From a virus: a DNA stretch of 51,058 nucleotides. Where the stretch lies: the IMG/VR virus record IMGVR_UViG_3300015203_000011, positions 1 to 51,058 of that record; one strand, written 5' to 3'. Below the pieces are notes generated by a model. The model did no database searches. It was given only the letters and a program-made list of their open reading frames with translations, and was not told the DNA's origin. This document shows positions 1,379-44,647 of this stretch, piece by piece (position 1 is the stretch's first letter; every line of letters begins with the position of its first letter). A program made the position numbers and the translations under genes.

Positions 1379-1561
1379 CTAGTTAATAGTATAGCAATAA
1401 CTCACTAACACCGCAAGTCCTGCAAGGATAAAAAAGATATTCCCTGCATAAACCCACCATGGAGTCCTTTCGCCTACGTCTCTCATTACGTAGACTGAAC
1501 CTAGACTCACGCTGAACAGGAAAACTACGAAAAATGCGAATACGAACGTTGCGTCTATCAT
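1379..1561 (-). CDS. Small membrane protein (2 predicted TM segments)
   Basis: The ORF-track entry is 1379..1597. The internal ATG at 1561 is preferred because AAGGAG lies 7 nt upstream. Hydrophobic stretches are FVFAFFVVFLFSVSLGSVYV and IFFILAGLAVLVSY. Confidence 0.55.
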   Translation of the reverse strand: MIDATFVFAFFVVFLFSVSLGSVYVMRDVGERTPWWVYAGNIFFILAGLAVLVSYCYTIN

Positions 1562-1562
1562 A

Positions 1563-1652
1563 TCATTCTCCTTCATCTGTGTAGTAGTATATAGCAACTA
1601 TCACTGCGAGAAACAAGATCCCTACGAAAAAATTTTTAAGCTTGTTCCACAT
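1563..1652 (-). CDS. 29-aa hydrophobic peptide (tentative)
   Basis: Manual translation gives MWNKLKNFFVGILFLAVIVAIYYYTDEGE, which overlaps both neighbours. Confidence 0.3.
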   Translation of the reverse strand: MWNKLKNFFVGILFLAVIVAIYYYTDEGE

Positions 1653-1797
1653 TTCGGGTTTCCTTTCGTGCGAGGCTTAAATCGTTGTTAATGGCTGTCA
1701 GTAGTTCAGCTGACTCAGTTGTTGTGATGGTTCCTTCGGCCAGTAAGCTGATTACCCATCTAATCTGATTTTCTAGTTCTTCTATTTTCGTTTTCAT
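1636..1797 (-). CDS. 53-aa hypothetical protein, first gene of the leftward arm
   Basis: ATG at 1797-1795 lies 5 nt downstream of AGGAGG (reverse complement of 1803-1808). Confidence 0.45.
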   Translation of the reverse strand: MKTKIEELENQIRWVISLLAEGTITTTESAELLTAINNDLSLARKETRNVEQA

Positions 1798-1825
1798 CTT
1801 GTCCTCCTATTAATACTATGACCCT

Positions 1826-1854
1826 ATTTCGAAAAAGATACAAGTATTTGTCAA
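1826..1854 (-). promoter_or_regulatory. Candidate leftward promoter (TTGACA-17-CGAAAT)
   Basis: Perfect -35 (reverse complement of 1849-1854) but a weak -10. It mirrors the rightward promoter at 2968. Confidence 0.3.
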
Positions 1855-2037
1855 ATATTTTTAATATTACCATAAGTAACTGTATTTATAGTACTTTGTA
1901 TCAAAACGGTCAGTAGATCGATTAAAATTCGACATTCTGGTCAGTTAATGTCACTTTTCGCTCATTTCTGACCATTTGTAGATTCTAGCTTACATTACAT
2001 GTCTTTCTGATAAGTTTATCTAACGAAAAACTTGTCA

Positions 2038-2086
2038 GAGTGAGACACTTTTCAGGGGTGTTTTGAATGACTGAGTGAGACACTTT
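2038..2086 (+). repeat. 14-bp perfect direct repeat GAGTGAGACACTTT (2038-2051 and 2073-2086)
   Basis: Read directly. The two copies start 35 bp apart. Confidence 0.9.
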
Positions 2087-2130
2087 AGATGCCTGTTTAC
2101 CTTTGAAAGGCGTGTAGGTCTGTACAGGAA

Positions 2131-2175
2131 TTAGGTCGTTTTTGAGTGATTTTGGTAATGTTGTACTGCGAATTA
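2131..2175. repeat. Inverted-repeat arm L: TTAGGTCGTTTTT + 20 nt + TACTGCGAATTA
   Basis: Both boxes recur as exact reverse complements in mirrored order at 2538-2582. Confidence 0.85.
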
Positions 2176-2337
2176 TGGATTTGTCGCACTACGAATTCGC
2201 ATCCATATTAGGTTAAAACGGAAAATCACGTACGACATATTTTAGGTTTTCTTGAAAAAAGTGAGCGCAAAAGTTTTTGAGAGGGGGGTCAAAGTGCAAC
2301 CGGATCCTACTAATATGGATCGTTTTTGCCCAAAATG

Positions 2338-2373
2338 GCAAAGGTTACAAAGGTAACCTTTGCAAAGGTTACC
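2338..2373. repeat. Overlapping palindromes: a 26-bp site with 11-bp arms (2338-2363) and a 22-bp perfect palindrome GGTAACCTTTGCAAAGGTTACC (2352-2373)
   Basis: Reverse complement checked base by base. Confidence 0.9.
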
Positions 2374-2419
2374 AACATGTTGTTTTAATTCAATAGGTTA
2401 TAAGGTTTTGTCAGAAAAG

Positions 2420-2440
2420 GTTGCAACAAAAAAGGTTACC
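2420..2440 (-). repeat. Composite site GGTAACC-N7-TTGCAAC (reverse orientation)
   Basis: The plus strand reads GTTGCAACAAAAAAGGTTACC. Confidence 0.8.
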
Positions 2441-2530
2441 TTTTTCCTAGCTAGAATCAGGTACTTAGCTCTCTTTTTAATAGAGGTTGTCACAAATTTG
2501 ATATTTCAAGTCTATATAGGTTGTATGCGA

Positions 2531-2546
2531 TGCGAATTAATTCGCA
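2531..2546. repeat. 16-bp perfect palindrome TGCGAATTAATTCGCA
   Basis: Read directly. The same two 8-mers occur 19 bp apart at 2167-2174 and 2194-2201. Confidence 0.9.
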
Positions 2547-2582
2547 GTAGCAGCAAGGCTCCTATAGTAAAAAACGACCTAA
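2538..2582. repeat. Inverted-repeat arm R: TAATTCGCAGTA + 20 nt + AAAAACGACCTAA
   Basis: Exact reverse complement of the two boxes of arm L, with identical 20-nt spacing. Confidence 0.85.
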
Positions 2583-2638
2583 AATTTGCAACCTCTCTGT
2601 TTTTCCCTTGTAACCCTATGAATAATAACAGGAAAACA

Positions 2639-2659
2639 GGTAACCCCTGTAGTTGCAAC
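2639..2659 (+). repeat. Composite site GGTAACC-N7-TTGCAAC
   Basis: Reads GGTAACCCCTGTAGTTGCAAC. Confidence 0.8.
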
Positions 2660-2695
2660 CTCCTCACTTAAGTACTTGATTAATAACAACAAAGC

Positions 2696-2716
2696 GGTAA
2701 CCTTTGACTTTGCAAC
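2696..2716 (+). repeat. Composite site GGTAACC-N7-TTGCAAC
   Basis: Reads GGTAACCTTTGACTTTGCAAC. Confidence 0.8.
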
Positions 2717-2721
2717 TTGAA

Positions 2722-2800
2722 GTGAGACTAAACGTTTGTATGATGAGACATTGTTTGGCTAAAATGAGACCCCTGTTTCAATGAGGAAATAGTGTCTCAT
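2722..2800. repeat. Phased TGAGAC iteron cluster (starts 2723, 2744, 2765; inverted copy 2792-2800)
   Basis: The three direct copies are spaced 21 bp apart. The inverted copy reads ATGAGACAC. Confidence 0.75.
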
Positions 2801-2967
2801 CAAACCCTAGTTGCGTTGGTTGTTCAGTTGCCCATATTATATAGGAGGGCCCTAATAGGTAAACTTTTCGGGGCCCCCCGCCCATCTAAGAGCACAACTA
2901 ACCCACGTGAGAATTTTCGGCCAAAATTTTCCAGAAAAAATTTTCTATAAAAATAATTTTAGGGGGC

Positions 2968-2999
2968 TTGACAAAGTTTAAGCCTTGGCGCAATATAAT
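2968..2999 (+). promoter_or_regulatory. Candidate rightward promoter
   Basis: TTGACA at 2968-2973. CAATAT lies at 17-bp spacing and TATAAT at 20-bp spacing. AGGAGG follows at 3010-3015 and ATG at 3021. Confidence 0.4.
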
Positions 3000-3020
3000 A
3001 CCAGAGAGTAGGAGGATGAG

Positions 3021-3362
3021 ATGAGAAACAGGATGTTCGATTTCACAGACCAAGCAAGAGCGGCATTAGGAAGCCGTAGAGAGTCTAGGACCTACCTCAC
3101 CCGTCTGGCAAGGCAATACGGCACCCCAGAGCCCACCCTGCGCTCCTACGGCCCCTCAAAGGGCGTTTCGGAGGTTGGGTTCTACAATCCAGTACTTCAC
3201 ACCATATTCTATCTGAGGGACCAAACCCCAGAAGAGACCGAAACAACTATACTTCATGAGTTCGTTCATGCAATCTACGATAGCAAAGGCTACGTAGAAG
3301 AACTTCACGGCCAAGCCTTCCACCTGACCCTGGCTCACCTACTAACCCAGGAACTGAAATGA
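3021..3362 (+). CDS. SprT-like zinc metallopeptidase domain protein
   Basis: Has HEFVH (HExxH) followed by HGQAF, the SprT-like pattern HExxH...HGxxF. Confidence 0.55.
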   Translation: MRNRMFDFTDQARAALGSRRESRTYLTRLARQYGTPEPTLRSYGPSKGVSEVGFYNPVLHTIFYLRDQTPEETETTILHEFVHAIYDSKGYVEELHGQAFHLTLAHLLTQELK

Positions 3363-3742
3363 CAAACTTTCGAAAAATCAATATAATGGAAAGTTCACCA
3401 ATAGAAATTCCATATATAGATCAAGCATGTAAAGAACTAAATATGCCCGTCTGCCCCACAAGATCTTTTCCAAAATTAAGAAAAATAGATAAAGAGGCCT
3501 TCTGCTGTGGTATGTTCGACCCAAAGTTCAATACAATTTTCATTTATGAGAACCTAAGTGAAAAAGAACGAAAGATCACAGCTATACACGAATTGGCACA
3601 TGCATTAGTTTATGCAAACGGAAGTACTTATGGGTATCACGGACCCGAGTTTCAGAAGGCTCTATCGCAAGTAGTAAAAACACAACCAGACATGAAATAC
3701 GATCCTTTTTGGGGTATGACATATGTACGGCCGACTAATTGA
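3359..3742 (+). CDS. SprT-like zinc metallopeptidase domain protein (paralog)
   Basis: Has HELAH followed by HGPEF. ATGA overlap with the upstream paralog. Confidence 0.6.
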   Translation: MTNFRKINIMESSPIEIPYIDQACKELNMPVCPTRSFPKLRKIDKEAFCCGMFDPKFNTIFIYENLSEKERKITAIHELAHALVYANGSTYGYHGPEFQKALSQVVKTQPDMKYDPFWGMTYVRPTN

Positions 3743-3917
3743 ATTAATCTCAAAAATTCCAGGGGTTACGGAAGTCCGCGTTTCAATAGGCAAGGAAAAG
3801 CACGGTATTTCCTATCATTTTACGGTTTTTATGGGGGATAAAGCCGAAGTTCAATCAATTCTTGACAAGCATCCTATCAAAGGTGTAACATATTACTTGA
3901 TGCACTACAGTGAGTAA
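3723..3917 (+). CDS. Hypothetical protein
   Basis: 64-aa ORF. Confidence 0.45.
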   Translation: MYGRLIELISKIPGVTEVRVSIGKEKHGISYHFTVFMGDKAEVQSILDKHPIKGVTYYLMHYSE

Positions 3918-3928
3918 GGAGGTTTAGT

Positions 3929-4474
3929 ATGAAAATAGGTTACGCTAGAGTAAGTACCGACAATCAAACACTCGACCCACAACTCGACGCCCTCAAAAAA
4001 GAGGGATGTGAAAAAATTTTTACGGATGTAGGTTCCGGAAAGAGATCAGATCGACCCGGACTCGAAGAAGCCGTCACGTCCGCGAGCACAGGGGATGTAA
4101 TCTGTGTAGTGAGGCTAGACCGCCTAGGCCGATCCTTACAAAACCTTACGGAAACTGTAACCAAACTTAAGGAAAAGGAAGTCGGGTTTAAAAGTCTCAC
4201 CGAATTAATAGACACAACCACTTCAACTGGAACACTCATGTTCCACATGTTAGGTTCGATAGCTCAATTCGAAAGAGATCTTATGAGAGAGCGTGTTATG
4301 GAAGGTCTAGAATCAGCACGACTTAGAGGGCGGGTAGGTGGCCGACGAATAACAGACCAATCAGCAAGATTAAACGTTCTAAATGCCGTACCAGATGAAA
4401 CGATTAAAGAAACCTGCCACCGTTTAGATATTAGTCGAGCAACCTACTACAGGATACTCAAGAGTGAAAAATAA
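3929..4474 (+). CDS. Small serine recombinase (resolvase/invertase family) with C-terminal HTH
   Basis: Has MKIGYARVSTDNQ, DRPGL, RLDRLGRS, FERDL..ER and a C-terminal ISRATYYRILK. AAGGAGG lies 6 nt upstream. Confidence 0.9.
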   Translation: MKIGYARVSTDNQTLDPQLDALKKEGCEKIFTDVGSGKRSDRPGLEEAVTSASTGDVICVVRLDRLGRSLQNLTETVTKLKEKEVGFKSLTELIDTTTSTGTLMFHMLGSIAQFERDLMRERVMEGLESARLRGRVGGRRITDQSARLNVLNAVPDETIKETCHRLDISRATYYRILKSEK

Positions 4475-4698: not shown

Positions 4699-4929
4699 AT
4701 GCACATATATAACGAAAGTTACCTGATAGATGAGTACACAACAGACGACTGGGATGCCCTAGTCAATACCCCGATTACAGAAGCCGTAATCGTATTACAT
4801 GATAACAAATCCTTTATCTCCACCCGAGGTCTGTTCGAACGTATTACGAACAAAGACCGAACTAAAACGACCTATTTTTGGGAAATTGAAGACAAAAAAG
4901 ACACCTACGGAGAGAATTTCTTAGATTAA
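4699..4929 (+). CDS. Hypothetical protein
   Basis: 76-aa ORF with a GAGAGGA ribosome-binding site. Confidence 0.5.
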   Translation: MHIYNESYLIDEYTTDDWDALVNTPITEAVIVLHDNKSFISTRGLFERITNKDRTKTTYFWEIEDKKDTYGENFLD

Positions 4930-5291: not shown

Positions 5292-5869
5292 GCATATTCG
5301 AAACACCCACAAATACATCCAATAACATCCATTTCAAGCCAATTCGAAATGAGAGTAAGGAAGAATACGCGCAGTTCGATTACTACCTGAAGTCTTCTAG
5401 TAGAGACTTGAACGAAGTGGGCATGAAGTTTAAACTTCGCGAATCCGTAGTTAGAAACCTAGCCAAAAAGAACAGATGGGAAGAACGTGCCGCGGCTTAC
5501 GATATTCAGGAACTTGACCTACAAACCCAACTGTCCGTTGAGGTCTTAACCAGTCAAGAGATGAACGTCCATACAATGGTCGAACAACATCTCAAGATTT
5601 CAGCCCTAGCCCAGGAACTTGGGGTTAAAGGCCTTAAATACCTAAACTACGCCCTTTCACAAGCCGAAACCAGTAATCCGATTAAACCCATAATCACTCC
5701 AGCAGACGTTGTTAGATTATTAGATTTCGGTGTCCGCTTAGCGAGATTAACACATGGTGAGGCGACATCTATAACACAAACCAAAAAAGACGTTGATTAC
5801 AGCAAGTTAAGTACCGAAGAACTGCATCTGCTTAAACAGTTAACCGAAAAGAGTAACACCAGTGATTGA
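5288..5869 (+). CDS. Putative DNA-binding protein / terminase small subunit candidate
   Basis: Lies upstream of terL and has an HTH-like segment LNEVGMKFKLRESVVRNLAKKNRWEER. No firm family match by eye. Confidence 0.35.
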   Translation: MSIFETPTNTSNNIHFKPIRNESKEEYAQFDYYLKSSSRDLNEVGMKFKLRESVVRNLAKKNRWEERAAAYDIQELDLQTQLSVEVLTSQEMNVHTMVEQHLKISALAQELGVKGLKYLNYALSQAETSNPIKPIITPADVVRLLDFGVRLARLTHGEATSITQTKKDVDYSKLSTEELHLLKQLTEKSNTSD

Positions 5870-5908
5870 AACGTGGTTACTTTCCAGTGGGAAAGTAATC
5901 CACACAAT

Positions 5909-7979: not shown

Positions 7980-9401
7980 ATGACCGAAATCAAAAAGAAA
8001 ACCCCAGGCGAAAAAGTTAAACGTTTTAAACAACGTTTCGATAGTTACTCCAACCCATTGACCGGTATTGGTTTCGCAGGACGAGATAAACTTCTAGCTA
8101 GTCAATTCTACCGTACTGATAAAATGAACGACGATGTTCTAGAAAACATGTATCATGACAATGACATTGCCGCCCGCGTGTGTGATGCTATCCCAGACCA
8201 TATTCTTAGACAAGGCTTCGATATTATAGTTGGAACCGAAACCTATAGCGATGATCTAGAAGATCTTCGCGATAATAATGAAGACCAAGTAAAATATGCC
8301 GATCAAGTCAATAAATTATTGATGCAACTTGATGAACTAGAAGCAAAAGAAAAGATAACTGATGCACTAGTCTGGGCTAACGTATTCGGCGGTTGCGCTA
8401 TCTATGTAGGTGTAGATGACGGCCGAGCACAAGACCAACCTATTGATATGAATAACATTAAAAATGTTACTTTTCTAAAGGTTGTTGATAAGCGATACAT
8501 TTTCCCAACACAATTCTACGAAGACCCATTGGATCCTAAGTTTGCGCAACCTCTTATCTACACCGTGTTCCCAGCTAGTAACACTTTAGCAGATGTTACT
8601 TTACAGAATTACGAAGCTCAAGTCCACGAATCGCGTATCATTCCATTCTATGGGACTCGTACCTCCAATAGACGAAGTCGCGAAAATCGAGGTTGGGCAG
8701 AATCAATACTCCAAAAACTTGATGAGGTGCTTCGTCAATTCTCAGTCAGTTGGCAATCAACCGCTCACCTTATGCAAGATGCTGCTCAGGCAGTCTTTAA
8801 AATGTATGGTGTAGTTGAATCTATGAGTGCCAACATGCCAGACTACCGAGCTAATCGACTCGCTGATATGGACATGAATCGTTCAAACGTCAGAACCATT
8901 CTAGTGGATGCCGAACTAGGCGAAGATTTTAGACGAGATACCTACTCATTCAATGGTATTCCACAAATCCTCGAACTGTTCATGTCACGTCTCGCAGCGG
9001 CAGTCGATATTCCAGTGACCTTGCTTTTCGGTATCTCACCTGGCGGACTTAATGCCACTGGCGAAAGCGAAATGCGAATTTTCTACGATAGGATTAAAGC
9101 CGCCCAAAAATATAAGGTCAAACCAAAAATTGAATATATTCTTCGCTTACTTATGTTAGCACGAAAAGGACCAATGAAGGGCAAAGAGTTCGATGTATGG
9201 TCAGTAAGTTTTCCATCACCATGGCAATCAACGGATCTTGAAAAGAGTGAGATCCACAAGAATAAAGCCATGACCAAAAAGCTACTTGCTGAGGCAGATG
9301 CTATTGAACACGGACGAATTCCAGTACCGGGGGATAAACTATCCGCTCCACCAAATAACAAACCAATTCCTACGGACTTAAACGAAACATCTAAAAAGTA
9401 G
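7980..9401 (+). CDS. Portal protein (DUF1073-like)
   Basis: 473 aa, directly after terL, with portal-like composition. Confidence 0.75.
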   Translation: MTEIKKKTPGEKVKRFKQRFDSYSNPLTGIGFAGRDKLLASQFYRTDKMNDDVLENMYHDNDIAARVCDAIPDHILRQGFDIIVGTETYSDDLEDLRDNNEDQVKYADQVNKLLMQLDELEAKEKITDALVWANVFGGCAIYVGVDDGRAQDQPIDMNNIKNVTFLKVVDKRYIFPTQFYEDPLDPKFAQPLIYTVFPASNTLADVTLQNYEAQVHESRIIPFYGTRTSNRRSRENRGWAESILQKLDEVLRQFSVSWQSTAHLMQDAAQAVFKMYGVVESMSANMPDYRANRLADMDMNRSNVRTILVDAELGEDFRRDTYSFNGIPQILELFMSRLAAAVDIPVTLLFGISPGGLNATGESEMRIFYDRIKAAQKYKVKPKIEYILRLLMLARKGPMKGKEFDVWSVSFPSPWQSTDLEKSEIHKNKAMTKKLLAEADAIEHGRIPVPGDKLSAPPNNKPIPTDLNETSKK

Positions 9402-9430
9402 TTGACAAAAAGAAAATGTTGTACTACAAT
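9402..9430 (+). promoter_or_regulatory. Promoter TTGACA-17-TACAAT
   Basis: Perfect -35 and 17-bp spacer, counted directly. Confidence 0.7.
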
Positions 9431-9459
9431 AAAGAAGAAAACTAACGGAGATATCCTAA

Positions 9460-11175
9460 ATGAAGTTAAAATTACTCGTATCTGGTTTGTTGTTATTTTC
9501 TACAGCCAGTCTCGCGGTGTCGACAAACTACGAATTGAATGCCCAATCAAAAGCAGAATTGTCAGTGGTTAAATCTGCAGGTGGCGCAGAAAACGATATG
9601 TCAGTTTCTGGTAGCTATAGTGCAACAGCAGATCACACTTACGATGTTGTTATTCTAGATAATACCGGCCCATTTGATACCATTAAATGGAGAAAAGATG
9701 CAGGTTCATACGTAACTGGCGCCGCCATTAGTGGACAAGCAATTCCACTTGCAGATGGACTGAGTGTAAACTTTAGTAATCTTCATGGTCACGTCATTAA
9801 TGATTCGTGGCACGTCGTGGCACAACTGACCCAACTGCTTAAGTTGCTTGATGCAGCTGGAGTTGTTAAGCTATCACTCTCTAATGCAGGCGTGCTGGTT
9901 GTCAGTGGGGCAACAATGTCAGGTAGTAATAGTGGGGATGTAACACTAGGAACTGCAAATGGTTTGTCACTCAGTGGACAGATTCTTTCACTTCAAGTAG
10001 CATCAAATTCAGTCCCTGGCGCCCTGAGTGCAGCAGACCACACGACATTTGCAGCTACCAGCGCGGCGAATACTCTAGATGTGAGTCTGGGAACAAGTAA
10101 CGGATTGTCATTGACAGCTCAAACACTCTCACTAGTAGCAGCTACAGATTCAGTGCCAGGAGCACTTAGTGCTTCAGATCATGCCGCCTTTTCTGCGAAA
10201 CAAGCAGCTGGTAACTACATTACAGCGCTCACGGGTGATGTGACGGCCTCAGGCCCAGGTTCAGTCGCAGCAACTATTGCAAATGGCGCGGTCACTGGAG
10301 CCAAATTAGCAAGTAATATCGCAATCAACACGTCTGTCGATGCTGTAATCCACTCTCTAGCGATTGGTGAAGGCGCTGGTTCCATCACAGGTAACTCGGC
10401 CTTAGGTATTTCTGCACTGAATGTAAACACAACCGGAAATCACAATACAGGGCTTGGTTATCTTGCACTTCGTTTTAACACAACTGGGCAATATAACACG
10501 GGTGCAGGTTGGGGTGCACTTGGAAATGTCGTATCATCTACAGACAATACTGCATTTGGCGCAGCAGCCGGCCTTGGTATGACCTCTGGCGGAGACAACA
10601 CCCATGTTGGATCTACTGCCGGATACATGGGCACAACTGGAAGTAGCAATACATCCGAAGGGTATGCTGCATCATATTATAACGTTACAGGTAGTAATAA
10701 CGTTGGTATTGGAAGTTCGGCACTCTACGGGGTAACTGGAAACAGTCAATCAGGAAACGTAGCCGTAGGTTCAAGTGCCATGGTAGCAGTAACGACAGGT
10801 TCCAATAACGTAGTGATTGGGTTCAATGCTGGACTTATTTTAACAAGTGGTGGAACCAACGTATTAATCGGCCATGCGTCAAATGCAGCAGCTGCTACAG
10901 ACACAAATAGTATTGTTATTGGTGATAGTGCACTTGGACTTGGCTCTAATATCACAGTGTTAGGTAATTCCAGCACAGTTCAAACTCAGATCTTTGGAGC
11001 AGTAACACAGAACGTACTAACAGTAAAACCAAGCTGTGCTGCAGGCCTTGCTGGTGCTAGGATTGTCTATCGTAAAGGTTCCGGTGGTTCAGAAGCAACC
11101 TCTGTATGCGATTGCGTAGAAGTCACTGGTTCCTATGCATGGGCTGCAACAACGACCCTTGGCGATTGCACCTAA
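9460..11175 (+). CDS. Secreted repeat protein with fibre-like repeats and YadA-head-like Gly/Asn repeats
   Basis: Signal peptide MKLKLLVSGLLLFSTASLA. Two tandem ~42-aa repeats containing SVPGALSA(A/S)DH. Many NxxxG repeats such as NSIVIGDSALG. It has its own promoter and terminator. Confidence 0.7.
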   Translation: MKLKLLVSGLLLFSTASLAVSTNYELNAQSKAELSVVKSAGGAENDMSVSGSYSATADHTYDVVILDNTGPFDTIKWRKDAGSYVTGAAISGQAIPLADGLSVNFSNLHGHVINDSWHVVAQLTQLLKLLDAAGVVKLSLSNAGVLVVSGATMSGSNSGDVTLGTANGLSLSGQILSLQVASNSVPGALSAADHTTFAATSAANTLDVSLGTSNGLSLTAQTLSLVAATDSVPGALSASDHAAFSAKQAAGNYITALTGDVTASGPGSVAATIANGAVTGAKLASNIAINTSVDAVIHSLAIGEGAGSITGNSALGISALNVNTTGNHNTGLGYLALRFNTTGQYNTGAGWGALGNVVSSTDNTAFGAAAGLGMTSGGDNTHVGSTAGYMGTTGSSNTSEGYAASYYNVTGSNNVGIGSSALYGVTGNSQSGNVAVGSSAMVAVTTGSNNVVIGFNAGLILTSGGTNVLIGHASNAAAATDTNSIVIGDSALGLGSNITVLGNSSTVQTQIFGAVTQNVLTVKPSCAAGLAGARIVYRKGSGGSEATSVCDCVEVTGSYAWAATTTLGDCT

Positions 11176-11194
11176 TATAAACAGATAATAATAG

Positions 11195-11220
11195 AAAAGG
11201 GCGCATTTAGCGCCCTTTTT
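11195..11220 (+). terminator. Intrinsic terminator
   Basis: GGGCGC-ATTTA-GCGCCC followed by TTTTT. Confidence 0.8.
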
Positions 11221-11227
11221 GCATTAC

Positions 11228-11256
11228 TTGACAATTTATTGAAAGTATGGTATAAT
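11228..11256 (+). promoter_or_regulatory. Consensus promoter TTGACA-17-TATAAT
   Basis: Both hexamers are perfect. The -10 ends 6 nt before the ATG at 11263. Confidence 0.75.
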
Positions 11257-11262
11257 ATTCGC

Positions 11263-11481
11263 ATGCCACCAGTTCGTAAACCATTGGCTAAAAAAGCCAG
11301 CTTATTTATTAGATACCCAGTGCCAGTATTGGCAGTAAGTACTCTTGTAAGCATGTTTGTAACGATGGGCGCTGTGTGGGGAAATTGGACAAGTAGAGTT
11401 GTTTCTTTAGAGGATCAAATCCATAAAGTTGAACAAAAACTGGATGTTATATCCAATAAGATAGACAATCTATCTCACTAA
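11263..11481 (+). CDS. 72-aa membrane-anchored coiled-coil protein, probably on a leaderless mRNA
   Basis: The ATG at 11263 sits at the expected transcription start with no SD upstream. The ORF-track TTG start at 11239 lies inside the promoter spacer. TM segment is VPVLAVSTLVSMFVTMGAVWG. Confidence 0.5.
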   Translation: MPPVRKPLAKKASLFIRYPVPVLAVSTLVSMFVTMGAVWGNWTSRVVSLEDQIHKVEQKLDVISNKIDNLSH

Positions 11482-11646
11482 GTCATCGTCCCAATTAATC
11501 GGATTATGCACGTCATCATCGATTGGCATAATAACAGCAACAATTTTATTGTAGCGTTTTATGTAAACTGGAATCTTCTGAATCTCGACTAGTTCGATAA
11601 CTTTCTTCCAGTGTTTACGAGCTTCAGTAATACTATAGATTATCAT
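11470..11646 (-). CDS. Phd/YefM-like antitoxin domain protein (58 aa), no adjacent toxin
   Basis: MIIYSITEARKHWKKVIELVEIQKIPVYIKRYNKIVAVIMPIDD fits the Phd/YefM N-terminal pattern. The internal ATG at 11646 is preferred. Confidence 0.6.
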   Translation of the reverse strand: MIIYSITEARKHWKKVIELVEIQKIPVYIKRYNKIVAVIMPIDDDVHNPINWDDDLVR

Positions 11647-11718
11647 TGTACGCCTTTTAAAGGGTAGAAAATCGCATAAGTTCGCGATTTTTAACATTTA
11701 TTGAAAATAAATAAAATA

Positions 11719-13041
11719 ATGCCTTATAATTCTATATCACAACTTCCCGAAAATGTCAAGACTTCTTTGACACCCGAAGAAGAAAAACAATTTTTAGCAG
11801 TTTTCAACTCCGTCTTTGGACGACATGGCGATGAAACCTCAGCCTTTAAGGTTGCCTGGGCCGCTGTAAATAAGCCAAAGAAAAAGGATGCAATGGACGA
11901 AATAAGACGATACGACTCAGTTGCCTTTTCCTCAAAACCTACTAAAACGAGTCAAGGTTTTTTGAAGGTAAGTGCCAATCTGAGCCGAACAGGCGTTTTT
12001 GTATATACAAACGCAGACGGTTCCAAACGTAGGGAACTTAGACATCCAGACGAAGTCTTCAAAACTGAAGTCATGGATTCGCTTCAAAGTGCTCCCGTAA
12101 CCTTCGGTCACCCAACAGACGGTAAAGATTACGTTCTAGTGAACTCAAAGAATTCGAAAAAATATACTGTTGGTATGCTCGGCGAAGAAATCAAACGAGA
12201 TGATAATTTCATCTCAGGTGGCATCACCATTATGGATTCAGAAGCAATCGAAGCCGTAGAAAAAGGTCACCGCAGAGAAATTTCCCTAGGGTACACCTGC
12301 GACCTGATCCCAGAATCCGGGGAATTCAATGGCGAAAAGTACGATTGCCGACAAACAAATATCTCTTATAACCATGCAGCCATTGTCCCACGTGGGCGAG
12401 CTGGCGCTGAAGTGGCTATAAGGATGGACTCCCAGGATGCGTGCACCGAGTACGTAACCGAAATAAACCTAAATGAGGAAGTAAAAATGGAAACCCAAAC
12501 GTTACATGTGGATGGAGTAGATTACGATCTACCTAAATCAACATCGCAAGCGATTGAGTTGGCCCTTAACAACCGATCCAAAGAACTGGCTGACATTAAA
12601 GCTGAATTGGATTCGACTAAAGGTCAGTTCGATGCAATGAAAGACGAACTCGCAAAGGCCAATCAATCCCGTGCCGATGCAGAAGATCCGAAACGCATTC
12701 AAGAAGCAGTGACCGCTCGTGTTGAGTTGTTGTCGAAAGCTTCAAAAGTTCTTGGAAATACGAATGATTTATCAGCACTTAATGATCGACAGGTCAAAGA
12801 AGCTGTTATTTTGAACGCAAGTCCAGATACGAAATTCGATTCACTTAGTGATGATTATGTAAATGGAAGATTCGACATGGTTGTTGAATCGCATAAAGCA
12901 ACTACGGAATCCCTTGCAAACGCCCGTCGGGCGGTCGATACTGCCGCTAGTGGTTCTGCTGATAAAGCAACGCCAGCTCAGGCCCGACAAGTCAAGCTAG
13001 ACGCTTATGCGAATGCTTGGAAAAAAACTTTAAATAAATAG
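11719..13041 (+). CDS. Head scaffold/maturation protein: ChaB-like N-terminus, DUF2213-like core, coiled-coil C-terminus
   Basis: LPENVKTSLTPEEEKQFLAVFNSV...AFKVAWAAVNK is ChaB-like. RRYDSVAF..GFLKV..RTGVFVY..RHPDEVF..PVTFGHP is DUF2213-like. Confidence 0.65.
   Translation: MPYNSISQLPENVKTSLTPEEEKQFLAVFNSVFGRHGDETSAFKVAWAAVNKPKKKDAMDEIRRYDSVAFSSKPTKTSQGFLKVSANLSRTGVFVYTNADGSKRRELRHPDEVFKTEVMDSLQSAPVTFGHPTDGKDYVLVNSKNSKKYTVGMLGEEIKRDDNFISGGITIMDSEAIEAVEKGHRREISLGYTCDLIPESGEFNGEKYDCRQTNISYNHAAIVPRGRAGAEVAIRMDSQDACTEYVTEINLNEEVKMETQTLHVDGVDYDLPKSTSQAIELALNNRSKELADIKAELDSTKGQFDAMKDELAKANQSRADAEDPKRIQEAVTARVELLSKASKVLGNTNDLSALNDRQVKEAVILNASPDTKFDSLSDDYVNGRFDMVVESHKATTESLANARRAVDTAASGSADKATPAQARQVKLDAYANAWKKTLNK
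11731..11759 (-). promoter_or_regulatory. Candidate promoter TTGACA-17-TATAGA for the Phd-like gene
   Basis: The reverse complement of 11754-11759 is TTGACA and of 11731-11736 is TATAGA. Confidence 0.5.
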
Positions 13042-13050
13042 GAGATTATT

Positions 13051-13842
13051 ATGGCTCAACTTTCATATAGCCTAAATCCTTCCGTAGCCTACGAAGGTGG
13101 ACTTGCGGATCAAGGGTTTAAAGATGTTATTTCGAAAATTAACAGCACCAACGAACTGATCCTTGTTACAGTAGTCAATGCTGTGAATAGTGCAGTTTAT
13201 ACCATTAATGTCAATGATGGCATTAATGCAGCTGCTAATGCAACTTATACCGCAGACGGTTCTGCTACCAAAACTGAAGCTGTTAACGGCCTCATTTCTG
13301 CAATCAATGCTCTTGCATTGAAAGTGAAATGCACCGTTGTCTCGTTGACCGGTGGTACTTTCAATGTTGAATTGGAAGATGAATCAGCAGCGGGTTCGCT
13401 TACCTTGCTTTCGACTGGTGATACACCTTCAGACGTAACTTTCAGCGTGAAAGTTGCTCAAGGTCAAGAAATCCCATTCGGTCGTTTCGTCTGTTTAGAT
13501 GAAGCACGCGGTGACGGTTTCGCACGACTTCCCCGCGTAAGTGGTGATGTTGGTGGTTTGACCTTCGGTGTTGTTCTTGCTGCTTCAGCACGTCAACCCA
13601 ATGCGGGTGGTTTCCCACACGCAAGCGTTTTGCCAGTGTTGAACAAAGGCCGAGTCTGGATGCGCGTTGAAGACGTTGCAACTGTTGGCGCTGCCGTTTA
13701 TGTCCGCTACACCGCAAATGGTGCAGGTCTTCCAGGTATGGTCCGTTCAGACGGTGATTCCAGTAAAGCTGCAGCCCTTGCTAAAGCAACCTTCAAATCA
13801 AGTGGCGGTGCTGGCGCACTAGTCATCGTTGAATTGGCTTAA
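13051..13842 (+). CDS. Putative head decoration/cement protein
   Basis: Lies between the scaffold and major capsid genes. Ala/Gly/Val-rich. Confidence 0.4.
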   Translation: MAQLSYSLNPSVAYEGGLADQGFKDVISKINSTNELILVTVVNAVNSAVYTINVNDGINAAANATYTADGSATKTEAVNGLISAINALALKVKCTVVSLTGGTFNVELEDESAAGSLTLLSTGDTPSDVTFSVKVAQGQEIPFGRFVCLDEARGDGFARLPRVSGDVGGLTFGVVLAASARQPNAGGFPHASVLPVLNKGRVWMRVEDVATVGAAVYVRYTANGAGLPGMVRSDGDSSKAAALAKATFKSSGGAGALVIVELA

Positions 13843-13853
13843 GGAGAATTATC

Positions 13854-14789
13854 ATGAGTGAAATTAGAAATGACGCTAATGAGGTAGCCTTTTTGGCACT
13901 TCAACTCGAGTTCATGCGTCAAAGAGAAATTGAAATCGAGTACGCCCTCCCCAAAGCACTCTCATTTGTAAGTGTGAAATCCGACGTGCCAGCTGGTGCC
14001 GAAGCTTTTGCTTACTATGAACTGGACAAACGTGCTGAAGCAGCATGGTTGGCCAACGGCGCAACGGACATTCCACTTGCAGACGTGTCAGGCGCTAAAA
14101 AAGTATCGCCTTTGGCTCGTATGGCTTCAGGTTATCGTTATACGTTTGATGACGTTCAACGTGCTCTTATGGCAGGTTTGAACTTAGATCAAAAACGTCG
14201 TGACGCTGCCCGTGATGCACTTAATCGCAAAATGGACTCAGTTGCCGCTCTTGGTGATGTTGAATTGGGTTTCCCAGGTCTTTTGAATCATCCAAACGTC
14301 CCAGTGTTGTCAGCAGCCGCTGCAGCGGCTGGTTCGCATGCTAAACCATGGGATGGCGCTGATAAAGTTCCATTGGAAATCCTTGCTGACATGAATGCAT
14401 TGGTAAACAAAATTGCAGATCAAACCCTTGATTTGCATGCAGCCAATGTTCTTTTGTTGCCATCAACCCACTATCGTTTGATCAGTGATACCCCGCTTGC
14501 TGCTAACGGATACAACTCTGACAGCATCTTGAATGCTTTCAAGAAGAACCATCCCGAAGTTTCAGTTTTGCCATGGATCTTGTTGGCAAATGCTGATGCA
14601 GCCGGAACTGGCCAACGCGCAATGGCTTACGAAATGAGTCCTAATAACATGGAATTCGTTGTCGCTGATCCAATCTCTGAAGATGCTCCGGAACGCAAAG
14701 GTCGATCCTATGAAATCGCTATGACTGCTAAAGTCGGTGGTTGCGTAGTGTATCGTCCTCTCGCCGCTGCCTATATGGATCTTATCTAA
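13854..14789 (+). CDS. Major capsid protein (DUF2184-type)
   Basis: FLALQLEFMRQREIEIEY, GYRYTFDDVQRA and GFPGLLNHPNV match the family pattern as I recall it. Confidence 0.8.
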   Translation: MSEIRNDANEVAFLALQLEFMRQREIEIEYALPKALSFVSVKSDVPAGAEAFAYYELDKRAEAAWLANGATDIPLADVSGAKKVSPLARMASGYRYTFDDVQRALMAGLNLDQKRRDAARDALNRKMDSVAALGDVELGFPGLLNHPNVPVLSAAAAAAGSHAKPWDGADKVPLEILADMNALVNKIADQTLDLHAANVLLLPSTHYRLISDTPLAANGYNSDSILNAFKKNHPEVSVLPWILLANADAAGTGQRAMAYEMSPNNMEFVVADPISEDAPERKGRSYEIAMTAKVGGCVVYRPLAAAYMDLI

Positions 14790-14801
14790 ATCGAGTAGCA
14801 A

Positions 14802-15083
14802 ATGGCTGTATCCGTAGCGAATTTTCAAGCACGATTCCCTGAGTTTGCCTCCACTGATACTGGGTTGATCACCTTAGTATTGGCGGAAGCCTCTGCTCAA
14901 ATCGAGACTAGTGTTTGGAGTACGAGACGGGATGAGGGTATTAAATACCTTACAGCCCATTTGCTTGCGATTTCTCCTATGGGAGAACCTGCACGATTAG
15001 GTGCAGACAAGATGGAAACCATTTATGGAAAACATTTCGAACGTTTGATGAAACAAGTAACATTTGGATTACGTAATGCCTAG
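14802..15083 (+). CDS. Head-tail connector (DUF4054-like)
   Basis: FQARFPEF motif, and it follows the capsid gene. Confidence 0.55.
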   Translation: MAVSVANFQARFPEFASTDTGLITLVLAEASAQIETSVWSTRRDEGIKYLTAHLLAISPMGEPARLGADKMETIYGKHFERLMKQVTFGLRNA

Positions 15084-15567
15084 ATCCGCAGTTGTCATAA
15101 GTGACATTGATCGCGGATTTAATCAATACAAATCTTTGTTATACAAACTAGAAAAAAAACCTGCAGTTGTTACTATCGGTATTCTTGAAGAAGATGCCAA
15201 TAAAACTGAAGGTACTTCTGGAGCAAGACTTTTAGATGTAGCTATTTGGAATGAGTTTGGAACTTCAAAAATTCCCGCTCGATCTTTCATACGCGAACCG
15301 TTTGAACGACATGATCATTACGAAAAATTACAAATAAGTGTTTTGAAAAGATATCTCTCAGGAAATATTACATTAGAATCTGCTTTGAATATTGTCGGAG
15401 CAGCAGTAGTAAAATCCTTTAAGAAAAATATTTTTGATTTCATTGCACCAGAAAATGCTGTCAGTACGGTAGATAAAAAAGGATTTAATCATCCTTTAAT
15501 TGGATTAGGTTCACCCGACGGTGAACATCTCCTAAATGCAATAAATTATAGATTGGATAAGTTGTAA
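15076..15567 (+). CDS. HK97 gp10-like head-tail joining protein
   Basis: WNEFGTSKIPARSFIREPFE motif. The ATG at 15076 is preferred over the TTG at 15064. Confidence 0.55.
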   Translation: MPRSAVVISDIDRGFNQYKSLLYKLEKKPAVVTIGILEEDANKTEGTSGARLLDVAIWNEFGTSKIPARSFIREPFERHDHYEKLQISVLKRYLSGNITLESALNIVGAAVVKSFKKNIFDFIAPENAVSTVDKKGFNHPLIGLGSPDGEHLLNAINYRLDKL

Positions 15568-16169
15568 TGGATTGGTCAAGCATACGAACTGGAATAAAAG
15601 GATGGTTCGCAGGTGCGACAGGTCTTCCAGTAGTATGGATGAATGAAGCCAGACCCATGACTACAAAGCCAATGGGAATATTACAAATAATTTCCACTAG
15701 CGCATTTGGTCCAGACATAATTCAAAATACCTATATTGATACAAATCCAGTTGGAACTCCACCAACAATTATCGGGCAAGAAATCGTTACATCGGTTCAT
15801 GGACTTAGAAAAATTACAGTAAGTTGCATGGTAGTTTCACGAGATCAGACCTCAAACCACGATGCTCTTTATTACCTAGAACAAGCAAGAGGTCAACTGT
15901 ATAGACCTTCTCTTTTAGCACTATTAAAAACAGCAAATCTCAGTGTTTTGAATATGAATAATGCTATTAAAATTTCTGATGGTATCTTCCAAGATAGATA
16001 TGAGTCAAAAGCAGTATTGGATATTACATTCAGCACCGCAGAAAATCTGACCTTCGATGATGTGCAAGACAACAGCACCTATATTGATACCATCTCCCTT
16101 TCTTCAGAATTAGAAAACCCAGATGATGAGCAACTTGAATTAGATAATGCCATCATTGGAAACATTTAA
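15567..16169 (+). CDS. Neck / tail terminator candidate
   Basis: Position only. Confidence 0.35.
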   Translation: MDWSSIRTGIKGWFAGATGLPVVWMNEARPMTTKPMGILQIISTSAFGPDIIQNTYIDTNPVGTPPTIIGQEIVTSVHGLRKITVSCMVVSRDQTSNHDALYYLEQARGQLYRPSLLALLKTANLSVLNMNNAIKISDGIFQDRYESKAVLDITFSTAENLTFDDVQDNSTYIDTISLSSELENPDDEQLELDNAIIGNI

Positions 16170-16181
16170 CAGGAGTCTACA

Positions 16182-17495
16182 ATGAGTTTAGATAGTATTG
16201 TCAGTGTGACAATCTCACAACAGACCTCCGCAGTATCCGTAGCAGGTTTCGGTATTCCGCTTATTGCAGGGTATCATACACACTACAGTGATCGCGTTAG
16301 GTCATATGCAGCATCCGGAATGCTCGCACAATTAGTAACAGATGGCTTTTCAACTAAAGATCCAATCTACATGGCAGCCAATGCCATATTAAATCAACAA
16401 CCTTCAGTCTCGACTGTCATGGTTGGTAAGTTAGCTACTTCATCCTCAAGATTTTTATCAGTCGTACCCGTAGCAATTAATTCGCATGTCTATAGTATAA
16501 CAATAGATGGACATATCTGTACGTATACCTCGGATGGAAGTGCGACTGTTGCAGAAATATGCGCAGGTATGGCAAGTGCCATTACAACAGCAGCAATTTC
16601 TGGTGTAACCGCTACCGATAACACAACTAATTTTTCAATTGCATTGTCTGCTAATACCCTGCTCGTCTTTAAAGATTACAATCTTAATGATCTACATGTG
16701 TCTGATAGCACAACTGCAAATGCAAGTTTAGCAACTGAACTGAGTGCAATCCAAACAGCTAATAATGATTGGTATTGTTTGCTATTGGCATCACAGGGAA
16801 CCTCTGACATTCTAGCAGCCGCAGCCTGGGCCGAAGCCGCAAAGAAGATCTTTGGGTACAGCACCGCAGATTGGGGAGTCACCGATTCAGGAACCAGCAA
16901 TGACGTTGCTAGTTCACTAAGCGGATCTGCATATCTCCGAACCTTTGGTGTATATACAGCTAATATTGGTGAGTTTGCAGCAGCAGCTTTAGCAGGAAAG
17001 AGACTTTCACTACAACCCGGTTCAGAAACTTGGGCCTTCGCTCACCTGTCCGGAGTAACTCCAGCCGACATTACCGAAGCTCAAAGACTTATTATAGAAG
17101 GCAAACATTGCAATACCTATATGAAACTTGCAGGTAATAATATCATTCGATCTGGTGTAACAGCTAAACCTGAATATATCGATGTTGTTCGATTTATCGA
17201 TTACATTACTTCAGGTATCCAAGTCGCTGTATTTAGTGCACTTATTAATAACAACAAAATTGCCTATACGGATGCTGGAATCTCAACCATCAAAGGTTTG
17301 ATTTTGGGTGTATTGCAAAATGGCATTAATGTAGGTGGTTTTGCCTCATCCCCAGCACCAACAGTTACTGCACCCTTAGCTGCATCGGTTAGTACGAACG
17401 ATAAAGCTACTCGCAACCTTCCCAATGTCGTATTTAAAGCCACCCTCGCAGGTGCCATCCACACAGTCGCTGTATCTGGCGTTGTGAGTCTATAA
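16182..17495 (+). CDS. Tail sheath protein (DUF3383-like)
   Basis: N-terminus MSLDSIVSVTISQQTSAVSVAGFGIPLIAG, a size of 437 aa, and its position upstream of the tube gene. Confidence 0.7.
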   Translation: MSLDSIVSVTISQQTSAVSVAGFGIPLIAGYHTHYSDRVRSYAASGMLAQLVTDGFSTKDPIYMAANAILNQQPSVSTVMVGKLATSSSRFLSVVPVAINSHVYSITIDGHICTYTSDGSATVAEICAGMASAITTAAISGVTATDNTTNFSIALSANTLLVFKDYNLNDLHVSDSTTANASLATELSAIQTANNDWYCLLLASQGTSDILAAAAWAEAAKKIFGYSTADWGVTDSGTSNDVASSLSGSAYLRTFGVYTANIGEFAAAALAGKRLSLQPGSETWAFAHLSGVTPADITEAQRLIIEGKHCNTYMKLAGNNIIRSGVTAKPEYIDVVRFIDYITSGIQVAVFSALINNNKIAYTDAGISTIKGLILGVLQNGINVGGFASSPAPTVTAPLAASVSTNDKATRNLPNVVFKATLAGAIHTVAVSGVVSL

Positions 17496-17505
17496 GGAGT
17501 AACCA

Positions 17506-17934
17506 ATGGCTGATTTAAAGAATTACGGTCTTGACAATTTATTCTTCAGTTTCAACGGTATTCCGTTCGGACTTGGTGGATCTATTCAATCCTTGAAGAT
17601 TGCTCAAGCTAGCAATGGTTTCGAAGATGAAGTGGGTTCAGGTGGAGAAGTTGTTCGCATTAAGAAACTTGATGGAAGAGCTTCAGTAACCTTAACACTT
17701 ACCGGATACTCTTCAGACAATCTAATTCTCTCGGCTTTACACGAAGCCGATCTCTTGGCCCCTAACGGAGTCGGTGTTGGGATTTTGTTCGCTGAGCAAG
17801 GTAACGATAAGTTCATGGCTGCCAAAGCTTGGATCCAGAAGGCCCCAGATCGTGACTATGCCGGTGATAAAATTGGTGATTGTGAATGGGTATTTCGTTG
17901 TGCTGATCTAGTACGTATCGATGGTGGCAACTAA
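17506..17934 (+). CDS. Tail tube protein (DUF3277-like)
   Basis: 142 aa after the sheath gene. Motif VGSGGEVVRIKKLDGRASVTLTL. Confidence 0.6.
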   Translation: MADLKNYGLDNLFFSFNGIPFGLGGSIQSLKIAQASNGFEDEVGSGGEVVRIKKLDGRASVTLTLTGYSSDNLILSALHEADLLAPNGVGVGILFAEQGNDKFMAAKAWIQKAPDRDYAGDKIGDCEWVFRCADLVRIDGGN

Positions 17935-17972
17935 GTCGTTAATTTACCTACTCTTTTAACTTTCTACTAAAC

Positions 17973-18003
17973 AAAAAGAGCAGGCGAAATCCTGCTTTTT
18001 TTA
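17973..18003 (+). terminator. Intrinsic terminator
   Basis: AGCAGG-CGAAAT-CCTGCT followed by a T7 run. Confidence 0.8.
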
Positions 18004-18004
18004 G

Positions 18005-18033
18005 TTGACAATACTTCAAGTATCTGCTAAACT
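18005..18033 (+). promoter_or_regulatory. Promoter TTGACA-17-TAAACT
   Basis: Spacing counted directly. Confidence 0.5.
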
Positions 18034-18064
18034 TACTAGTTACCAAAATAATATAGGTTAAAAA

Positions 18065-44544: not shown

Positions 44545-44567
44545 AAAATTTCCTATGTAGTTCTTGT

Positions 44568-44596: not shown

Positions 44597-44647
44597 GAGT
44601 TGCTTTTCTTGGATTGGGTTGTTATCTTAACAATGGAGGCAGATTTT

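Follow-up and report, generated by a model that had tools for sequence, protein, structure and literature searches.

Genome setting of the hub

This analysis concerns a gene-free region of 1,223 bp, hereafter called the hub, at positions 1798-3020 of the IMG/VR virus record IMGVR_UViG_3300015203_000011, whose 51,058 nucleotides were analysed over their whole length (the window). The window is a complete phage genome. Indeed, its first and last 99 bases (1-99 and 50960-51058) are identical, and an independent Logan contig of 50,703 bp (ERR4837134_28241, L314, run ERR4837134) spans the junction, giving a circle of about 50,959 bp of which ~91% is coding. The plus-strand arm extends from 3021 to about 27,500 and encodes two metalloproteases, a serine recombinase, TerS, TerL, the portal, the major capsid protein and a myovirus tail. 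The minus-strand arm runs from 1797 to 1 and on from 50959 to about 28990, and encodes small proteins, an endonuclease, PhoH, a primase/SF3-type helicase, an exonuclease, helicases and PolA. Neither an integrase nor a repressor was seen in the genome. Given the circular closure and the directions of the arms, the hub is the sole point from which both arms diverge; the first-pass annotation of this sequence had placed it between the two divergent arms.

The hub is by far the largest gap of the genome, the next ones measuring 468, 283 and 219 bp. Its longest open reading frame (ORF) is 103 aa long. Judged by the codon usage of the phage itself, no ORF of the hub rises above background (-0.28 to +0.10 per codon, versus 0.29±0.07 for real genes), and none of them has a PHROG match. 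The earlier statement that no credible ORF lies here is borne out by these results, and on the same codon scores and missing PHROG match we rejected a decayed coding sequence. No tRNA was found in the hub, and a search of Rfam 15 (including GOLLD, ROOL and OLE) gave no match at the gathering threshold and chance-level matches only (E of at least 0.37) at a permissive threshold, both in the window and in its relatives. The hub is therefore a non-coding region; as described below, its sites are real, enriched and specific to it, and its position and architecture, together with some of its boxes, are conserved in related phages. The features are listed in Table 1.

Table 1. Features of the hub and the candidate origin-binding protein of the window
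Feature	Positions	Strand	Description
Gene-free hub	1798-3020	.	Between first gene of minus arm (1636-1797) and first gene of plus arm (3021-3362)
AT-rich, easily melted tract	1825-1905	.	Candidate DNA-unwinding element or UP region
Leftward boundary promoter candidate	1826-1854	-	TTGACA-17-CGAAAT
GGTCAG boxes	1908 (+), 1939 (+), 1968 (-); span 1908-1973		3 of 21 genomic copies; modest enrichment
Left TGAGACA cluster	2000-2098	.	Repeats, fold
Bipartite inverted repeat, left arm	2131-2175	+	TTAGGTCGTTTTT, 20 nt, TACTGCGAATTA
Overlapping GGTWACCTTTG half-sites	2338-2375	.	Include 22-bp perfect palindrome GGTAACCTTTGCAAAGGTTACC (2352-2373)
Left composite module	2430-2467	-	TAAGTACCTGAT (2456-2467), 15 nt, GGTAACCTTTT (2430-2440)
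16-bp perfect palindrome	2531-2546	.	TGCGAATTAATTCGCA; apex of large imperfect inverted repeat
Bipartite inverted repeat, right arm	2538-2582	-	Perfect 13-nt (2570-2582) and 12-nt (2538-2549) matches, same register
Three tandem ~28-nt modules	2570-2718	+	GGTAACC-type box, 7-8 nt, TTGCAAC; at 2570, 2634, 2691
Right composite module	2669-2706	+	TAAGTACTTGAT (2669-2680), 15 nt, GGTAACCTTTG (2696-2706)
Right TGAGAC array	2717-2806	.	Boxes at 2723, 2744, 2765 (21-bp period); inverted copy at 2794
GC-rich island	2843-2886	.	AGGAGGGCCC...CGGGGCCCCCCGCCC; two GGGCCC-centred palindromes
A/T-tract element	2922-2967	.	AAAATTTTCCAGAAAAAATTTTC... then AATTTTAGGGGGC; directly upstream of plus-arm -35 (TRF, stability)
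Rightward boundary promoter candidate	2968-2997	+	TTGACA-17-CAATAT; TTGACA at 2968-2973
Primase/SF3-type helicase (DUF5906)	40755-43166	-	Outside hub; homologue adjoins hub in L322 and L323

Repeats, palindromes and dyad symmetry

Several families of short boxes are concentrated in the hub far above chance. It holds five of the six genomic GGTWACC sites, all five copies of AAAGGTTAC, four of the six TGAGACA sites, four of the seven copies of TGCGAATT and two of the three copies of GTTGCAAC. The repeat families described in the first-pass annotation are thus real and hub-concentrated; the GGTCAG boxes lie where it had placed them and give a weaker signal (Table 1). Its mention of several perfect palindromes proved to be an understatement. 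The hub contains 21 distinct 8-bp perfect palindromes, about four times the expectation from dinucleotide shuffles (5.5±2.4; 0 of 2000 shuffles reach 21), and this count ranks top among 499 sliding windows, the other gaps pooled having 1.6 per kb. The two longest even palindromes of the genome (22 and 16 bp) are both in the hub. Pairs of inverted 7-mers number 228, compared with 80±11 in block shuffles and 93±14 in dinucleotide shuffles, and pairs of direct 7-mers number 148 versus 72±11; identical 7-11-mers are used four to six times within the hub of the window, in direct as well as inverted orientation. Relaxed avoidance of restriction sites, or a restriction-site decoy, was considered as a source of the palindromes and rejected: the rest of the genome is mildly depleted (684 palindromes versus 742 expected), and every palindrome of the hub also occurs outside it.

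These sites are arranged in two dyad systems whose arms interlock. The first is centred at about 2356-2362, with the 22-bp palindrome as its apex and a bipartite 45-bp repeat as its outer arms (2131-2175 and 2538-2582), in which 20 unrelated nucleotides separate the perfect blocks on both sides; the dyad centre 2356.5 is the top centre of the symmetry spectrum. The second is centred at about 2535-2540 on the 16-bp palindrome and has imperfect arms of ~86 nt (2363-2448 and 2630-2706). Half-sites of the TGCGAATT type also begin at 2167 (+) and 2194 (-), inverted copies of the ~28-nt GGTAACC/TTGCAAC module occur at 2418-2445, and the left and right composite modules form a divergent pair 201 bp apart. 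To the left, the TGAGACA cluster comprises a 48-bp inverted repeat TGTCTTTCTGATAAGT...ACTTGTCAGAGTGAGACA (2000-2047) and two 31-nt tandem units (2033-2063 and 2068-2098). To the right, the TGAGAC array has the at least three helically phased direct repeats expected of iterons, its units sharing only a 6-9-nt core. Separately, a TAGGTCGTTTT box was found at 4864-4877, inside the ORF 4699-4929 just past the recombinase gene; the only other copies of this box are the outer arms of the bipartite inverted repeat of the hub.

Promoters, AT-rich tracts and strand skew

The first-pass annotation had described mirror-image promoter candidates at the two boundaries of the hub. Both TTGACA hexamers are present, 40 nt (left) and 36 nt (right) from an AGGAGG, and the leftward one (1854..1849) sits within a 13-bp palindrome TATTTGTCAAATA (1845-1857). 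The -10 hexamers are poor, and the best promoter of the hub, the rightward candidate, ranks only 30th in the genome on a position weight matrix. Strong canonical promoters are located in other gaps of the genome. Within the hub, promoter-like sites are weak (ranks 45 and 56 genome-wide), and no terminator was found with these weak internal sites; one promoter-like site, TTGAAG-16-TATGAT (2717-2744, +), is overlapped by the right TGAGAC array.

The left part of the hub had been reported as AT-rich over 1830-1900. Indeed, only two distinct 80-bp windows of the genome are less stable than 1825-1905, which includes the 60-nt window of lowest GC content in the hub (1831-1890, 18% GC); a second soft tract lies at 2922-2961. 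In the suggested check of GC skew, the minima of the detrended cumulative GC and AT skews fell inside the hub (2007 and 2214, respectively), at a switch that is fully confounded with the switch of gene orientation.

Conservation in related phages

The phage belongs to an uncultivated lineage, the nearest cultured TerL being ~39% identical, and usable relatives were found only by a TerL search of a set of 5.8 billion proteins (Logan and JGI assemblies). Blastn of positions 1500-3400 against 50,697 phage records gave no match, nor did blastn of the hub region against plasmids, and an exact scan of IMG/VR for the 22-bp palindrome found nothing. TerL scans of IMG/VR, JGI metagenomes and GTDB genomes reached at most 46% identity and no syntenic hub; relatives found through PhoH had nothing else in common with the window, and the primase-helicase has no relative in IMG/VR. 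A search of IMG/VR with the gapped box pattern was also set aside: its 96 matches are all single sites without hub-like clustering, and most of them are copies of a conserved 29-nt site that belongs to one family of contigs.

The relatives recovered are uncultivated myoviruses, which we designate L316 (TerL identity 56%, gene-free hub of ~1.4 kb, or 1.6 kb without a called gene), L318 (47%, 1,238 bp), L322 (46-47%, 749 bp), L323 (44%, 425 bp) and L319 (47%, ~1.36 kb at a contig end and probably truncated). In L316, L318, L322 and L323 the hub lies between a minus arm and a plus arm that leads to TerS/TerL. The conservation check proposed with the first-pass annotation is therefore answered by hubs of equal position and architecture that have some boxes in common; these hubs can be aligned only at the short boxes. 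The hubs of L316 and L318 each contain 19 8-bp palindromes (~6±2.4 expected; 0 of 1000 shuffles), with inverted 7-mer pairs 10-17 standard deviations above shuffles. As the excess is found in the window, L316 and L318 and not in L322 and L323, it is a trait of a subclade with enlarged hubs.

One clade-wide element is TAAGTACYTGAT, a 12-mer restricted to hubs, the exact box being nowhere else in ~110 kb. The 12-mer TAAGTACTTGAT or its variant TAAGTACCTGAT is present in four hubs (window, L316, L318 and L319), and control segments of coding sequence from three genomes have no 10-mer in common. Five times in three phages (window, L318 and L316), a GGTnAC-type box is found at a distance of 15-17 bp from the TAAGTACYTGAT box, and in L318, as in the window, the composite modules form a divergent pair (221 bp apart). 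Each lineage has its own form of the GGTnAC box: the window has GGTWACCTTTG, L316 TGTTACCT, L318 GGTCACACTT and L319 TGTGGTAAC. L318 also has a 22-bp perfect palindrome, GGTCACACTTGCAAGTGTGACC, equal in length and frame to that of the window; in each half, eight of the 11 positions agree, and the changes at the others mirror one another. Such mirrored divergence has the look of a site co-evolving with a dimeric binding protein; the mirrored changes are as compatible with a hairpin as with a site bound by a dimer.

Other elements recur in part of the relatives. TTGCAAC boxes are common to the window and L322, where TTGCAAC/TCGCAAC forms inverted arrays. ATAGTGTCTCA and AATTTTAGGGGGC are common to the window and L319, the L319 boxes of the former lying just upstream of its plus arm. 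The A/T-tract element is conserved in L318 (6028-6066) and L319 (86-118), and a G-rich island is similarly placed in L318 (~5855-5895). Where the window has its TGAGAC array, L316 has three repeats of 21-bp period with inverted copies, of different sequence. Outward boundary promoters of sigma70 type were found in L318 (TTGACA-17-CAAAAT and TTGCAA-17-TATACT) and in L316 (TTGAAA-17-TATATT).

The relatives also show how the boxes are disposed around a core. L318 has at least 12 half-sites in two inverted arrays, with direct copies too, and these arrays flank its lowest-GC stretch (18% GC) at the dyad centre. In L316 an AT-rich stretch (18% GC) lies between oppositely oriented boxes, and the L322 hub has a polypyrimidine centre with inverted TCGCAAC/GTTGCGA arrays on either side. 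As a separate observation, two GGTCACACTT palindromes of L318 (5313-5334 and 5531-5552) are followed by T-runs and score as intrinsic terminators that face the AT-rich core from both sides; they could insulate this core from transcription.

A homologue of the primase-helicase is the first gene adjoining the hub in L322 and L323. In L322 it is followed by the exonuclease and PolA, and the first gene of the plus arm encodes a DnaA C-terminal DNA-binding domain. From this adjacency, the ancestral layout looks like a replication module, then the hub, then the packaging module; the hub and the primase-helicase of the window are now separated by ~10 kb of accessory genes. The gene order of L319 is different: over 8450-18450, a primase-helicase, a peptide deformylase, an exonuclease and a helicase come after the portal on the same strand, unlike the two arms of the window, which reflects either a rearranged genome or a chimeric contig.

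Proposed function of the hub

Taken together, the hub is most likely a cis-acting region of double-stranded DNA, neither a gene nor a structured RNA. The first-pass annotation had suggested an origin and/or operators, and the density of protein-binding-type sites in a conserved hub agrees with this suggestion, origin function being the part that is deduced; none of the refuting conditions named in that annotation applies. We consider it somewhat probable that the hub core is a bidirectional replication origin, combined with promoters and operators of the two arms. Promoters of both arms would face outwards at the edges of the hub, with dyad-symmetric protein-binding boxes between them. A sequence-specific phage protein would bind the GGTnAC/TTGCAAC-type half-sites and the palindromes, the best candidate for this origin-binding role being the primase/SF3-type helicase encoded at 40755-43166, or a partner of it. 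The TAAGTACYTGAT box, at a distance of 15-17 bp, would be occupied by a conserved factor, encoded by the phage or an IHF-like protein of the host, and the bound complex would then melt a nearby AT-rich tract. The phased TGAGAC array beside the plus arm is probably an operator array acting on a rightward promoter. Origin function, the identity of the binding protein, and promoter and operator activity are in each case predictions.

An origin is favoured for several reasons. First, inverted arrays flank AT-rich or polypyrimidine cores in L318, L316 and L322, a replicator-like geometry. Second, the primase-helicase gene adjoins the hub in L322 and L323, and a DnaA_C gene does so in L322. Third, no origin-like repeats occur in any other gap of the window. 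Finally, the skew minima are inside the hub, soft AT tracts are at its flanks, and the hubs of L318 and L316 are edged by outward promoters.

A number of observations weigh against this interpretation. The boundary -10 hexamers are poor (CGAAAT and CAATAT), and the skew switch cannot be separated from the change of gene orientation. The softest AT tracts of the window lie at the edges of the hub, off the dyad centres, and the core at 2468-2668 has 38% GC. The hub contains no match to the DnaA box TTATCCACA within one mismatch, and the genome-wide count is at chance; DnaA boxes are common in iteron-type origins, without being universal. L322 and L323, whose hubs are smaller, lack the palindrome excess, so that it is not required for basic function, and in the window ~10 kb lie between the hub and the primase-helicase. 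With at least five families of boxes, several proteins would have to bind the hub, and much of it could be pure transcriptional control.

The binder of the TAAGTACYTGAT box deserves separate mention. On the minus strand, 2669-2681 reads AATCAAGTACTTA, a match to the IHF consensus WATCAANNNNTTR, which is confirmed in the literature (e.g. PMC9452768), and the copy at 2456 has one mismatch. We nevertheless rejected host IHF as the binder: the consensus fits, but the hub holds only one of the ten genomic matches to it, and conservation of the box extends past the consensus. That the 'N' positions are kept as well suggests a binder of greater specificity.

The hub shows where to seek the replication origin and the early/late control sites of this lineage. 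The 22-bp palindrome, the TAAGTACYTGAT box and the module made of this box, N15-17 and GGTnAC can serve as probes for the binding proteins, and the mirrored divergence of the palindrome between relatives offers a natural experiment in protein-DNA co-evolution.

Alternative explanations

The strongest rival, which may be partly true, is a purely transcriptional control hub, in which the boxes are operators timing both arms and the origin lies elsewhere; as the whole explanation we regard it as unlikely, while giving it real weight. The TGAGAC boxes, phased at 21 bp, overlap the promoter-like site at 2717-2744, and the analogous phased array of L316 overlaps a TTGACA just upstream of its plus arm. 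Boundary promoters are present in L318 and L316, and the box sequences turn over between relatives in the manner of co-evolving repressor-operator pairs. However, no repressor-like gene (HTH or RHH) was identified beside the hub of the window, and the hub-proximal genes are not conserved between relatives whereas the hub architecture is. The strongest promoters of the genome are outside the hub, and an origin accounts better for the inverted arrays around AT-rich cores and for the primase-helicase gene beside the hub in L322 and L323.

We judge it improbable that the hub is a packaging region (cos/pac or genome termini) whose boxes are bound by the small terminase and whose GC island marks the cut. 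The sites cos and pac usually lie in or beside terS, but 1.6-4.8 kb and several genes separate the hub from terS, none of the hub boxes occurs in or near terS, and the circular assembly gives no sign of termini. What speaks for packaging is the position of the hub, upstream of the packaging module in every relative, and the divergence of TerS, which is the most diverged shared protein (28-39% amino acid identity, versus 44-56% for TerL) and would fit a co-evolving site specificity. In addition, the GC-rich island at 2843-2886 resembles cohesive-end regions, and an IHF-like box is a feature of lambda cos.

About as improbable is a new kind of device: a bistable switch, made either of DNA (cruciform or invertible) or of RNA (pseudoknotted or with alternative folds), that would couple replication to the early/late decision, or a hairpin-rich decoy for host nucleases or defence sensors; both would be unlike an ordinary array of binding sites. 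This idea is raised because the density of diverse perfect palindromes is extreme and conserved in the subclade, and because the long-range inverted repeats interlock. Slight room for something unusual is left by the interlocking dyads and by the fourfold excess of short palindromes, which recurs in three independent hubs.

Less probable still is that the hub is transcribed into one or more large structured non-coding RNAs, such as a primer transcript like that of phage c2 or a new phage RNA. On either strand, positions 1990-2900 form a much more stable fold than their shuffles do (z = -8.2 on the plus strand and -5.6 on the minus strand), but this similar stability on both strands is what any dense inverted-repeat architecture would give. 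The hairpins at 2000-2047 and 2738-2805 have G.U pairs on the plus strand only; over the imperfect inverted repeats, however, G.T and A.C mismatches are mixed, with no strand asymmetry. Some L318 palindromes resemble terminators and the c2 ori employs a non-coding transcript (PMC7150918), whereas no pair of strong internal promoter and terminator was found in the hub of the window. Rfam gave nothing above chance, the hubs align at short boxes only, most palindromes are loop-less, and identical boxes of 7-11 nt are repeated, in L318 and L319 as direct repeats, which is unexpected of RNA helices. The loop-less palindromes, the reuse of boxes and the lack of G.U asymmetry therefore argue for recognition of double-stranded DNA by proteins over RNA helices, and the long structured RNA offered as an alternative in the first-pass annotation is not supported.

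The weakest candidate, a very unlikely one, is an invertible switch or res-type site. Segments bounded by the inverted repeats of the hub would be flipped or resolved by the small serine recombinase encoded nearby at 3929-4474, which has a Resolvase domain (E=2e-42) and matches the PHROG 'DNA invertase' (E=9e-60). Its gene is 0.9 kb from the hub, interlocking inverted repeats flank segments of 181-362 bp, the DNA-binding helix is nearest to Tn3 resolvase (the catalytic domain to Gin), TGAGACA reads TGTCTCA on the other strand, like real Tn3 res half-sites such as TGTCTGATAA (taken from plasmid pEC886), and L322 has a resolvase between hub and TerS; yet the switch region evoked in the first-pass annotation is not supported: res-sized TGT...ACA dyads (24-36 bp) are missing from the hub (0 of 11 genome-wide), the TGAGAC boxes of the right cluster are arranged tail-to-tail, the 26-bp site at the recombinase promoter (3884-3909) has no partner in the genome (best match 18/26), and the hubs of L316, L318, L319 and L323 have no recombinase in the surrounding sequence examined, L316 and L318 having the full palindrome excess. 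The two assemblies of the genome are identical in the hub and in the same orientation, which is uninformative on inversion as they probably derive from the same reads.

Other features of the genome

The 26-bp site at 3884-3909 is a quasi-palindrome with TGTA...TACA ends. It overlaps the -10 of the strong promoter directly preceding the recombinase gene (TTGACA-18-TAACAT) and may serve in autoregulation or in recombination. A small serine recombinase is encoded just upstream of TerS/TerL in the window, in L322 (8816-9379, 43% identity) and in distant prophage-like contigs (L020-L025 and L045), which suggests that the link between recombinase and packaging module is conserved.

The plus arm starts with two tandem paralogous genes for SprT/ImmA-like (HExxH) metalloproteases (3021-3742), with no cognate repressor gene near the pair; the first of them, the hub-adjoining gene 3021-3362, is an orphan without homologue in the 5.8 billion proteins. 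Within the structural arm, a small PhdYeFM-antitoxin-like gene lies antisense at ~11470-11697 (-), adjoining the top sigma70-type promoter of the genome (11228-11256), and is found at the same position in three related phages (window, L316 at 16354-16545 and L318 at 13171-13347). Conversely, a phage lysozyme gene at 44564-45070 (+) is on the plus strand inside the otherwise minus-strand arm, its L316 and L318 homologue being near the hub. The least stable 80-bp window of the genome (49947-50030) is inside an endonuclease VII-like ORF (49599-50180), which also contains a 21-bp perfect palindrome TTATAATATTGAATATTATAA (49972-49992). Finally, the gap upstream of PhoH holds a hairpin with a perfect 12-bp stem, TTCCCCCTTTTT(6 nt)AAAAAGGGGGAA (48454-48483), shaped like a bidirectional intrinsic terminator.

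Comparison with known systems

In the c2-type Lactococcus phages (Ceduovirus), the ori is a non-coding region without ORFs or ribosome-binding sites, bounded by promoters and placed between divergent early and late blocks (PMC7150918). It has been mapped experimentally, and its sequence varies among related phages while position and function are kept (PMC7150918). The hub shares with c2 the non-coding region between divergent blocks. It differs in being dominated by dyad arrays of repeated boxes; moreover, the c2 ori, which needs no phage proteins, is defined by a non-coding primer transcript together with the promoters PE1 and PE2, whereas no convincing internal promoter or transcript is evident in the hub. 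The blastn comparison described above also gave no similarity to the c2, bIL67 or 923 ori types, and host and phage type are different, the phage studied here being a myovirus with its own PolA and primase-helicase.

Another experimentally mapped precedent for an ori in a non-coding region is the Vibrio cholerae satellite PLE, which has, between gene clusters, a kilobase-scale non-coding region with several repeat families and whose own initiator binds semi-palindromic iterons (PMC7145576). The PLE region measures 2.7 kb and has four repeat types. Its origin is of the RepA_N kind, whereas no RepA_N protein is encoded in the window, and the sequences are unrelated.

The SaPI ori, the P4 ori/crr and the polyoma- and papillomavirus cores are iteron or inverted-array origins served by initiators of SF3 or primase-helicase type. 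As in these, short direct and inverted boxes flank an AT-rich segment in L318 and L316, the palindrome would suit head-to-head loading of helicases, and the initiator-helicase gene is beside the site in L322 and L323. Unlike them, the hub is several times larger and has at least five box families, the primase-helicase of the window is remote, and DNA binding by its DUF5906 is only putative. In the res site of Tn3/gamma-delta, between the divergent tnpA and tnpR, a small serine recombinase acts on several TGTC-type half-sites that overlap promoters, and the TGTCTCA boxes of the hub are alike; the hub, however, has no 25-34-bp dyads with outer TGT, is ten times larger and exists in L316, L318, L319 and L323 with no recombinase gene in the surrounding sequence examined.

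A non-coding origin or control region between divergent modules is an expected feature of a phage genome, and the sequence of this hub is itself unrelated to the known ones. The iss region of phage T5 has eight paired DnaA boxes and lies in the terminal repeat beside the A1 and A2 genes, whereas the hub has no DnaA boxes, is similar to no deposited phage record, T5-like ones included, and lies between the divergent arms of a circularly assembled 51-kb genome. The fourfold excess of palindromes nevertheless resembles only this still mysterious T5 region, and solving one of the two may inform the other.

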